Assembly: GCA_001817425.1 (NCBI GenBank)
Contig: MHII01000006.1
Location: forward strand, 1 to 56,985
DNA from: Candidatus Buchananbacteria bacterium RIFCSPHIGHO2_02_FULL_39_17
Lineage (GTDB): Bacteria > Patescibacteriota > Patescibacteriia > Buchananbacterales > UBA6539
Reading direction: 5' to 3'
Length of the DNA stretch: 56,985 nt
Shown here: positions 2,116-4,339 of the stretch, one piece after another
Layout: each line of letters starts with the position of its first letter
Position numbering within the stretch: position 1 is the stretch's first letter
The notes under the pieces: generated by a model
Told to the model about the DNA's origin: nothing
Databases searched by the model: none
Seen by the model: the letters and a program-made list of their open reading frames with translations, nothing else
Made by a program: the position numbers and the translations under genes

Positions 2116-4146
2116 ATGACATCGGAAAAAGCCAAAAAAGCTAAAGCCGCAGCCCAAGAATATACGGCCAAACAAATCACGGTTTTGGAAGGTTTAGAGC
2201 CGGTGCGCAAACGGCCGGGGATGTATGTTGGCAATACCGCCAGTGAAGGTTTGCACCATTTAGTTTGGGAAGTAGTTGACAATTCAATTGATGAAGCCAT
2301 GGCCGGACGCTGCGACAAAATTGAAGTAGCGCTTTTGGCAAATGGCGCCGTATCGGTTGAGGACAATGGCGCTGGGATTCCGGTTGATCTCCATAAACAG
2401 CACAAAAAGTCGGCTTTGGAATTAGTCTTAACTAAACTTCACGCTGGCGGCAAATTCGGCGAAGGCGGCTATAAAGTTTCCGGCGGCCTGCACGGCGTTG
2501 GCGTTTCCGTGGTTAATGCTTTGTCCGAATGGACGCGCGCCGAAGTCAAGCGCGAAAGCAAGCTCTGGCTCCAAGAATATGACCGCGGCAAACCGCGAAA
2601 AAAAGTCCAATCAGTAGACAAAGCGAGCGGCACTGGCACCAAAATCACCTTTAAGCCTGACGCTCAAATTTTTACGGTTTTAGATTTTAATTTAGCAACA
2701 ATCTTAGACCACTTGCGCCAACAAGCCTATTTGACCAAAGGCGTCAAAATTGTGGTTAATGACGAACGCGAGGCCAAAAACAAAACGACTTATCAATTTT
2801 ATTTTGAAGGCGGCATTGCTTCTTACGTCAGCTATTTAAATCATCACGTTGAGCCGAAACATGATAATATTTTTTATGTTGAAAAACAGGAAAGTGACAC
2901 CACCGTAGAAGTTGCTTTGCAATATACCAATGAATATAAAGAAAATATTTTTGCCTTTGCCAACAATATTCTAAATCCAGAAGGCGGCATGCATTTAGTC
3001 GGCTTTCGGACGGCCTTAACCAGAAGTTTAAATAATTATGCGCGCAAGCAAGGCTATTTTAAGGAAAAAGACGAAAACCTGAGCGGCGAAGATTCGCGCG
3101 AAGGCTTAACCGCCGTTATTTCAATTAAAATTACGAATCCCCAGTTTGAAGGCCAAACTAAAGCCAAACTTGGTAACGCTGAAGTTAAACCAATTGTTGA
3201 CGGCATTATTTATGATTCTTTAAATACCTGGCTTGAAGAACACCCCAAGGACGCGGAAGCGATTATTGGCAAATGTATTTTGGCGCAAAAAGCCCGCGTG
3301 GCCGCGCGCGCCGCGCGCGAAACAGTTTTGCGCAAAGGCGCTTTGGAAGGTTTAACTTTACCCGGCAAGTTGGCTGATTGCTCCACCCGCGACGCTTCAA
3401 AATCCGAATTATTTATCGTTGAAGGCGATTCAGCCGGCGGCTCGGCCAAACAAGGCCGAAACCGCGAATTTCAGGCAATTCTGCCCCTGCGCGGTAAAAT
3501 TCTTAATGTCGAAAAAGCCCGGATTGATAAACTTTTAACCAATAATGAATTAAAGGCCTTGGTTATTGCCATGGGCACAAATATCGGCGAAATGTTTGAA
3601 ATTGAAAAATTGCGCTATGATCGAATAATTTTAATGACTGATGCGGACGTTGACGGCTCGCACATCCGCACCTTACTTTTAACTTTATTTTACCGTTATT
3701 TCCCCGAGGTCATTCGACAAAATCATTTATACATTGCGCAACCGCCGTTATATAGCGTTAAAAAAGGCAAAGAATTTACCTGGCTTTACAGCGATCTTGA
3801 ACTTGATGATTATCGCAAAAAAAATAAAATTAGTGATGAAATTATAGAAAATATTGAACCAGAATCGGAAATGCCAGCCACAACCGCACCAGAAGAACCA
3901 GCTGAAGAAAAAACCGAAAAATCGCCCAGACTGATGATTCAGCGCTACAAAGGTTTGGGCGAAATGAATCCGGAACAGCTTTGGGAAACCACCATGGATC
4001 CCCAAAAAAGAATTTTAAAATTAGTCGCCATTGAAGATGCCACCAAAGCCGACGAAGTCTTTGATATTTTAATGGGTAGCGAAGTCGGACCTCGCAAGCA
4101 GTTTATCCATGCCCACGCGAAAAGCGTTAAAAATTTGGATATTTAA
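2116..4146 (+). CDS. gyrB: DNA gyrase subunit B
   Basis: Motifs [48 protein letters not shown] and [11 protein letters not shown]. Confidence 0.97.
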
Positions 4147-4339
4147 AGTTAAGCGCTTCAAAATTAATATTATCTGAGTCTCGCCCCGCTCTAAACTAAA
4201 ATTAAAACACTAATTCTCCACAAATCAGCCGAAGGCGGTCTCCGCGCCAAATAAACTTTACAACTATCTAAAATTTCTCCGCGAGTTTAGGGCGGTGGTC
4301 CATGCGCATGCGAAGAGCGTTAAAAACTTAGACATTTAA
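4147..4339. mobile_element. miniature insertion after gyrB: spacer, ~112-nt structured element (4184-4295) and a displaced copy of the gyrB 3' end (4298-4339)
   Basis: 4298-4339 encodes [13 protein letters not shown], against [13 protein letters not shown] at 4105-4146. There are 7 differences in 42 nt, 6 of them synonymous. The element has inverted ends CCCCGCTCTAAACT/AGTTTAGGGCGG. Confidence 0.75.

Follow-up and report, generated by a model that had tools for sequence, protein, structure and literature searches.

The 3' end of gyrB occurs twice in contig MHII01000006.1 of Candidatus Buchananbacteria bacterium RIFCSPHIGHO2_02_FULL_39_17, and a structured element, here called E, lies between the two copies. 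Positions 1 to 56,985 of the contig were analyzed and are referred to as the window. The duplication was probably (about 0.6) left by a small mobile element of Patescibacteria that encodes no protein, exists in multiple copies, and carries a replacement gene end. The same probability applies to two features of the mobile unit: the replacement gene end is part of it, and it homes to the homologous site. The copy of the gene end that is joined to the gene is designated T', the displaced copy beyond the element T, and the unit made up of T', a conserved tail, and E is designated U. An earlier note on this DNA had proposed an inserted unit of new terminus, spacer, and element, and its inference was essentially right: about 20 other loci have the conserved tail after the gene-joined copy.

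The gyrB coding sequence (2116-4146, + strand, 676 aa) was taken from the open reading frame (ORF) list, and its homologues have all four GyrB Pfam domains. Repeat alignment confirmed that the last 13 codons and the stop codon are doubled. When 4105-4146 (ATCCATGCCCACGCGAAAAGCGTTAAAAATTTGGATATTTAA) was compared with 4298-4339 (GTCCATGCGCATGCGAAGAGCGTTAAAAACTTAGACATTTAA), each translated into 13 residues, 7 of the 42 nucleotides (nt) differed. The earlier count of six synonymous changes and one Ile/Val change was reproduced, but the Ile/Val change proved to be a junction effect: the G of the orphan "Val" codon is the final base of the 3' stem arm of E (GGGCGGTGG|TCCAT). The proper repeat is 4106-4147 versus 4299-4340, and its six differences (G/C, T/C, G/A, C/T, A/G, and C/T) are all synonymous, because this G belongs to the stem and lies outside the repeat. 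Comparative data support the proposal that the unit entered the coding sequence and preserved the protein.

T' at gyrB (4106-4171, +) comprises the last 13 codons and stop (4106-4146, the final 41 nt of the coding sequence) and 25 nt of 3' flank. It begins 78 nt ahead of the E stem, matching about 20 other loci, and would have come in with the element. T (4299-4340, +) is the orphan gene end, which abuts the 3' end of E directly and continues into native-looking flank, as expected of the displaced original end that the earlier note took it to be. Coding identity between T' and T is 85%, and T is not followed by any equivalent of the spacer that follows T'. The 37-nt spacer described earlier was found at that length and place (4147-4183), but its last 12 nt (ATCTGAGTCTCG, 4172-4183, +) are a conserved part of the element, present in 34 aligned copies. 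The E core (copy 1, 4184-4298, +) scored 105.6 bits with the covariance model described below, and this 115-nt segment folds better than shuffled sequences (z = -3.4). Its inverted ends were as described, CCCCGCTCTAAACT at 4184-4197 and AGTTTAGGGCGG at 4284-4295, with pairing extended to 4298. The closing stem P1 (4184-4197 with 4284-4298), formed by the ends CCCCGCTCTAAACT/AGTTTAGGGCGGTGG, contains a single U.G wobble and a single bulged T. The small hairpin GCCGAAGGC is at 4228-4236, and in helix P4 the CGCG at about 4245-4248 pairs with the CGCG at 4280-4283.

By its GyrB, the organism belongs to the Patescibacteria, with Buchananbacteria as the nearest named relatives. Four proteins from the same 90% cluster as this GyrB come from contigs of several samples. 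A 320-nt region around the duplication proved base-identical to the window in six contigs, which represent at least five samples and were assembled with different pipelines. An assembly artefact, in which strain variants of the gyrB 3' end were collapsed or joined in tandem, had been allowed for in the earlier note, and the two copies do differ as alleles would. Its probability is nevertheless negligible, because the structure is identical in the six contigs and homologous structures were found in other lineages and at other genes. The GyrB proteins of the next lineages are 83% identical. In the closest E-free lineage (L087-L090, 83% GyrB identity), there is one gene end, and secE follows 137 nt later; this is an empty site of the kind that the earlier note suggested comparing. 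In L092/L093 and L094-L096 (81-82% GyrB identity), a homologous insert is present at exactly the same gyrB codon. The order in L092/L093 is in-frame copy, 35-nt spacer, element, and orphan, and the copies differ at eight sites, all synonymous. L094-L096 have two elements with a displaced response-regulator 5' end between them (reverse strand MPENIKKILIIEDD), which is followed by its own spacer. A supposed resemblance of the window's gyrB spacer to the native flank of L094 was rejected, as the common part is the conserved tail of E only. The closing stems vary among the lineages by compensatory changes: CTCTAAACT/AGTTTAGGG, CTTTAAGTC/GACTTAAAG, and CTCCAAGTC/GACTTGGGG. No strain-level empty sites were found at gyrB or gatB, every contig with an identical protein being filled; the 16 contigs with identical GatB (two of them NCBI assemblies) all have the same tmk-gatB spacing as the window, where the second copy of E lies.

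In L091, from an "empty" lineage, a different imperfect hairpin (CTCTGGACTC...GACTCCAGGG) lies downstream of gyrB at 2343-2470 and is followed by TCCACGGGATATTTTTAA, which could be a degraded orphan gyrB end.

The covariance model (R1) was built from four gyrB-linked copies. It found two further copies in the window, at 19461-19594 (-, 86.8 bits) and 44892-45022 (+, 48.7 bits), and no others even with filters off. The earlier suggestion to search for more copies was thus rewarded, and the single gyrB event that it implied gave way to a multi-copy family, with three members in the window and gene 5' ends as the commoner targets. Copy 2 (19466-19592, -; core 19466-19580, tail 19581-19592) is antisense to and upstream of gatB, in whose product GatB domains were found. 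T' at this locus (19593-19647, +) consists of a 20-nt upstream spacer and the first 35 nt of gatB (ATG at 19613), and T (19400-19465, +) is the displaced native start (ATG at 19431) with homologous upstream sequence. Both copies encode MKLTPIIGLEI, and their eight nucleotide differences, in seven codons, are all synonymous. A promoter-like site is present at 19398-19427, by the displaced start. Copy 3 (44894-45017, +; tail 44894-44905, core 44906-45017) is antisense to and upstream of a UvrD/PD-(D/E)XK helicase gene. Here T' (44852-44893, -) comprises a short spacer and the initial 38 nt of the helicase gene (ATG at 44889; MPELNIKNLNPEQ), and T (45018-45052, -) is a displaced, more diverged start (MELNLKSLNDE).

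A metagenome collection was scanned once with a stem-consensus pattern, which gave 55 loci, about 20 of them unrelated palindromes or coding sequence. According to the model, there are 34 strong E copies overall, including six from the window and the gyrB relatives, mostly from groundwater samples. Their targets are dnaK (four lineages), response regulators (three or more), epimerases, a glycosyltransferase, tsaD, lepA, polA, uvrB, gatB, and the helicase gene. Except for GyrB, GatB, and the helicase, these genes were named from N-terminal motifs alone. The targets are termini with strongly conserved sequence. A scan of genome contigs gave only distant GyrB relatives (at most 66% identity) and one weak E-like copy, in L030. 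The stem pattern had no matches in IMG/VR, which was scanned for carriage by phages or plasmids. With Rfam 15, no match reached the gathering score in the window or at E in 11 E-bearing loci, and only noise was seen over 4050-4450 at E-values up to 10. Known RNA families (group I and II introns, self-cleaving ribozymes, retron msr/msd, tracr and omega RNAs, Y RNA, signal recognition particle RNA, and 6S RNA, among others) were rejected on this basis. No tRNA or tmRNA genes were found in the window. Full-text literature searches gave no description of the element, and the family is apparently undescribed.

In the flank analysis, 230 nt on each side of every copy were aligned. The order was invariant: gene body, T', tail, E, and T. 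At about 20 loci, 75-79 nt separate the start of the upstream repeat from P1, and the downstream copy follows E without a gap. U is 184-193 nt long in most loci. It measures 182, 166, and 170 nt at loci with a shorter spacer and reaches 220 nt in L115, owing to a longer E core. T' is about 60-65 nt long, of which 16-62 nt are coding and the rest adjacent flank. The ORF that runs into T' is always on the 5' side of E. Sense orientation at a gene 3' end was found at gyrB in three lineages, and antisense orientation at a gene 5' end is commoner. Most displaced copies run into native flank that lacks the tail. The base preceding T' is G in 14 of 21 loci, echoing the terminal G-run of E, and T mostly begins with the base T, giving a weak G|T site. 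In L115 (328-491, -), E itself has an internal 35-nt tandem duplication, which doubles the small-hairpin region and gives a 145-nt core.

T' and T differ like orthologues from different lineages. The earlier note had described the divergence between the gyrB copies as selection-like, and the same holds more widely: in nine ungapped cases, 34 synonymous and 11 non-synonymous nucleotide differences were counted, where 19% of the possible changes are synonymous. For the synonymous excess, P is 5e-16 under neutrality of all changes and 0.02 when half of them are assigned to a constrained copy. The non-synonymous differences fall at variable N-terminal residues. At three of the four dnaK loci (L112, L118, and L150), the coding parts are 97-100% identical, and the spacers are about 75% identical with indels. 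Each displaced start of a response-regulator gene or of uvrB has retained an ATG of its own and the conserved motif but differs at variable residues; the displaced uvrB start also has a different base composition. Because the divergence is orthologue-like and the flank after T is native-looking, T' would have arrived with E from another lineage, and T would be the recipient's own end.

These data also bear on a non-autonomous transposon similar to miniature inverted-repeat transposable elements (MITEs), in which an unlinked transposase makes a staggered cut of about 65-77 nt and leaves a long target-site duplication that diverges in place. The ends of E resemble terminal inverted repeats, the flanking repeats are nearly constant in length, there is the weak G|T junction preference (14 of 21 with G at -1), and the repeats in L116, L127, and L115 are near-identical. 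A neutral displaced copy should, however, have mostly non-synonymous differences, and its coding part should diverge as fast as its spacer; neither was seen. The synonymous bias and the contrast between coding and spacer sequence therefore do not fit a long target-site duplication followed by decay. Further, the gyrB spacer that follows T' is missing behind T despite the 85% coding identity, the identical repeats come from arrays, where they are expected anyway, and stem covariation is not needed for a transposase that binds double-stranded ends. No transposase is known to make duplications as long as 65-77 nt. This explanation was considered unlikely.

Arrays were found at several loci. L141 has four tandem units with a period of 191 nt (4.1 copies), each with another variant of one gene start, and a fifth E at the next gene. 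The repeated units are identical in L127 and L115, and L136 has a second, truncated E. Displaced remnants would be expected to decay, and the outermost array copies are indeed frameshifted or have lost the ATG. Repeated single crossovers inside T would give arrays in which T differs. The arrangement at gyrB in L094, where a T of response-regulator type lies between two E copies, is expected from one crossover inside E between the resident unit and a unit of another locus.

Tandem accretion and the combination of a foreign replacement end with a displaced native one would fit attL/attR sites of larger integrative elements (a phage, an integrative and conjugative element (ICE), or an island) that were later almost wholly deleted, with E as a leftover arm. 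The same core of about 124 nt with the same boundaries is present at more than ten genes, though, and the unit is always about 190 nt long; such convergence is not expected of independent deletions. Neither integrase remnants nor IMG/VR matches were found. Such an origin is very improbable.

The conserved E is about 124 nt long in the alignment of 34 sequences, with a 12-nt 5' tail and a core of about 112 nt. The tail has the consensus yyTGAGTCTCG, and variants end in CTTG or CTCA. P1, of 14-16 base pairs, is formed by CCCCGCnnnAAGTC and GACTTnnnGCGGGG. P3 is a conserved GTAAGCC-loop-GGCG hairpin of three base pairs with a cGNAg or cGNNAg loop, and P4 is a helix of four base pairs stacked directly under P1, in which CGAG/UUCG alternates with CGCG/CGCG. 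Over the alignment, 96.2% of the cells are paired, and nine pairs are changed on both sides. None of 500 shuffles reached the observed values, and sliding the partners gave 30-51% paired. The covariation of three variable P1 positions is unbiased, since these were N in the search pattern.

Each of the 25 U.G wobbles in P1 places the U (T) on the 5' arm, and 28 G.U pairs are present in P4. The fold therefore belongs to one strand, as the P1 and P4 wobbles are A.C mismatches on the complement. The E-sense strand has no obvious promoter and, at most loci, runs antisense to the sole neighboring gene. Most P3 loops are triloops (GAA, GTA, or GCA) or non-GNRA GNNA tetraloops, and C-G always closes them. 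In DNA, d(cGNAg) and d(cGNNAg) are well known as hairpin loops of very high stability. The mostly antisense orientation without a promoter, together with the P3 loop types, favors single-stranded DNA over RNA, and the folded form of E is probably single-stranded DNA.

The conserved structure, the fixation of E in the population, and its position beside highly expressed housekeeping genes would also suit a structured element that benefits the host, such as a regulatory leader, a small RNA derived from a 3' untranslated region, or a signal for single-strand replication or recombination, spread by local tandem duplication and homologous exchange. Against this, E is found at unrelated genes, at both 5' and 3' ends, and is mostly antisense; its presence varies among close lineages, the arrays hold decaying displaced ends, and the unit of one gene was found at another (L094). 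A host function in place of mobility is accordingly improbable, and one could coexist with the mobility of E.

The preferred reading, a mobile unit with its own gene end, could operate as follows. The unit, U, would be about 190 nt long, with a T' taken from a donor lineage, and would insert in the recipient gene at the position homologous to the first base of T'. The gene would run on into T' and stay intact, while the recipient's end, T, would be pushed beyond E and decay there. Integration may be Campbell-like: a unit-length or multimeric circle, or a copy of U, would recombine inside T or a resident E. The machinery would act in trans, as host recombination on DNA from relatives or as an unlinked recombinase, HUH enzyme, or reverse transcriptase. 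The Campbell scheme would give the invariant junction between the E 3' end and T, differences spread over T, and an inherited unit length. Much less confidence was placed in the circle and in the Campbell details than in the mobile unit itself.

Several points weigh against this reading. No circular or free intermediate was seen. The Campbell scheme does not account for a unit of about 190 nt across unrelated targets, and imperfect homology over 30-60 nt would make a poor substrate for RecA-type recombination. The identity run from the first base of T is 1-31 nt, with no identical core of fixed length, which speaks against a classical tyrosine-recombinase crossover at this point; beyond the weak G|T, the loci share no core sequence. 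L116 has two 95%-identical repeats of 77 nt, both with the tail and with no second E, which also fits a long target duplication, and the copies in L030, L109, and L129 have no evident long repeat. When base composition (guanine-cytosine content) was used to tell which copy is native, the loci split 8 versus 6; both cases with a large difference favor the orphan. Finally, apart from the reverse transcriptase of a diversity-generating retroelement (DGR) and an IS1595 fragment at the edge, no integrase, transposase, HUH, or TnpB genes were found in the 57-kb window, and no protein family recurs beside E.

The absence of a linked mobility gene in the window and of a recurring neighbor family indicates that E is non-autonomous. 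NCBIfam searches with the unannotated window proteins gave nothing relevant, and no transposase was found near the other E copies. As a tentative and rather doubtful elaboration, E and T' might form a self-contained, protein-less homing module: a single-stranded unit of about 190 nt (DNA or RNA-derived), possibly circular and copied by a rolling circle, in which the gene end of about 60 nt serves for both targeting and rescue. Its mobilization might depend on host functions during the uptake of DNA from relatives, or on an unlinked HUH enzyme or reverse transcriptase.

E was compared with known systems. Integrative elements (temperate phages, ICEs, and integrase-less cis-mobilizable elements) likewise have flanking direct repeats, an element-borne copy that is joined to the gene, differs from the displaced native one, and keeps the gene functional, and arrays, and those with a gene-end copy in attP show Campbell integration and tandem accretion. 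In agreement with an att-type arrangement, direct repeats flank E and the element-borne copy restores the gene. In contrast to these elements, the E unit is only about 190 nt long, has no integrase or other protein, and has a strand-specific folded core; its repeats of about 60-65 nt lack a fixed identical core, and one family uses many genes, mostly at 5' ends. No cognate integrase was found in the 57-kb window, and none recurs near E. Mobile introns and homing-endonuclease genes bring along a duplicated fragment of the host gene (PMC7315562). As with E, a foreign copy replaces part of the gene, a displaced duplicate is left, and the element spreads between lineages at the homologous site. 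E differs from them in having no intron, endonuclease ORF, or Rfam intron or ribozyme match, and since it is antisense to the gene at most loci, it could not be spliced from the gene transcript there.

MITEs and small palindromic repeats (Correia, repetitive extragenic palindromic (REP)/REPIN, and Rickettsia palindromic elements) are similar to E in their length of about 100-150 nt, many copies, inverted ends, and lack of coding. E has terminal inverted repeats of 14-16 nt, but its flanking repeats are about 60-79 nt long and imperfect rather than short identical duplications of 2-10 base pairs, its stem covaries with wobbles on one strand, and it is always at a gene end with a rescue copy. 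Integron cassettes share with E a site that folds as a single strand and is conserved more in structure, as well as arrays of a variable segment plus a folded site. Unlike attC, E has no RYYYAAC/GTTRRRY boxes (its ends are CCCCGC...GCGGGG) and no IntI nearby, and its "cassettes" are 65-nt gene-end mimics, not ORFs. DGRs also have a non-coding gene-end copy beside a structured element; the T'/T differences, however, are not adenine-specific, the targets are housekeeping genes at both ends, and the structured element is itself inserted. In contrast to IS200/IS605 derivatives (PATE and omega-RNA modules), E has a long flanking repeat, and the window gave no Y1_Tnp or OrfB matches. No conserved motif was found 5' of T' beyond R at -1. 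An omega-RNA-like guide was rejected, as there was no TnpB or IscB gene and no conserved motif 5' of the target. In comparison with CRISPR or TIGR arrays, the "repeat" is 124 nt long, the "spacers" are variants of the adjacent gene end, and there are no cas-like genes in the window. E is best filed as a radically miniaturized variant of integrative or homing elements that restore gene ends, and its mechanism could be new in kind.

If the mobile-unit reading is true, E is among the smallest site-directed mobile elements known, without a gene of its own, in Patescibacteria. It would insert in essential genes (gyrB, dnaK, gatB, uvrB, polA, and tsaD) harmlessly thanks to the spare gene end. The termini of core genes would be continually exchanged for foreign sequence, leaving mosaic ends and decaying pseudo-starts and pseudo-ends that mislead gene callers and phylogenies, and the CRISPR-like arrays would record successive invasions. 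The question then raised is which enzyme and intermediate set the fixed unit of about 190 nt. Targeting by homology with a recoded rescue copy is the logic of engineered "home-and-rescue" gene drives, and a natural minimal version would be relevant to research on mobile DNA and to genome engineering. Should the homing module also prove true, it would be a new mechanism of site-directed mobility that uses the most conserved gene termini as safe harbors.

Downstream of the gyrB orphan lies a convergent gene for a 146-aa protein (4388-4828, -) with a weak Pfam Zn_ribbon match. Its hairpin terminator (4345-4366, -) is in the native flank, outside the element. The earlier note had called it bidirectional, but the terminator scan accepted it on the minus strand only, the plus strand having no T-run. 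One to three small CPxCG...CxxC zinc-ribbon proteins are encoded convergently to gyrB in the E-carrying lineages (4779-5240 in L092 and 5059-6641 in L094, in addition to the window gene) and are absent from the empty-site L087. They were rejected as partners of E, being confined to the gyrB neighborhood; as these genes are not next to E at other genes, they are probably a separate insertion.

The window starts inside a gene for an IS1595-family DDE transposase (1-160), which lies upstream of the gyrB neighborhood in sister contigs (L001, 610-1041; L002, 201-632) and probably explains the contig break. This gene is an unlikely parent of E, as CCGCYCTAAACT (the stem arm only, without the outermost end bases) is absent from its six loci outside E. 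A complete DGR is present at 8503-11175, just downstream of rplA (L1). Its reverse transcriptase is split in two ORFs, at 8503-8895 and 8873-9571 (-), and its Avd-like four-helix gene is at 9494-9889 (+). A target gene of 258 aa has the variable repeat (10410-10537) at its 3' end, and this repeat shows 17 adenine-specific (A-to-N) differences from the template repeat (9949-10076). The gyrB duplication was rejected as a template/variable repeat pair, since its differences are not adenine-specific and the real DGR is elsewhere.

The weak E-like copy in L030, from a Nealsonbacteria genome (4146-4295, -, 32.6 bits), is divergent and lies exactly between the nusG stop and the rplK start. It has compensatory stem changes and no long flanking repeat, just TTCA. 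In L137 (1717-2560), from an AT-rich lineage, there is a tandem cluster of weaker E-like hairpins (30-41 bits), which have the stem ends and tail of E (ATCTCG|CCCCGC) without the conserved small hairpin and may be a second subfamily.

In L147, a locus of 1,701 nt, E lies inside a tRNA-Val-like gene copy (reverse strand, about 1-560; E core at 259-371), which it splits between the 5' strand of the anticodon stem and the loop; an intact tRNA-Val gene adjoins. Further small GC-rich hairpin insertions were seen in the D-arm and T-loop regions of tRNA-like genes in L147 and in L098 (about 430-1165). In L127 (5424-5904, -), the match to RNase P RNA (class A) is 481 nt long against a model of 367 positions, which suggests that this Patescibacteria RNase P RNA carries insertions.

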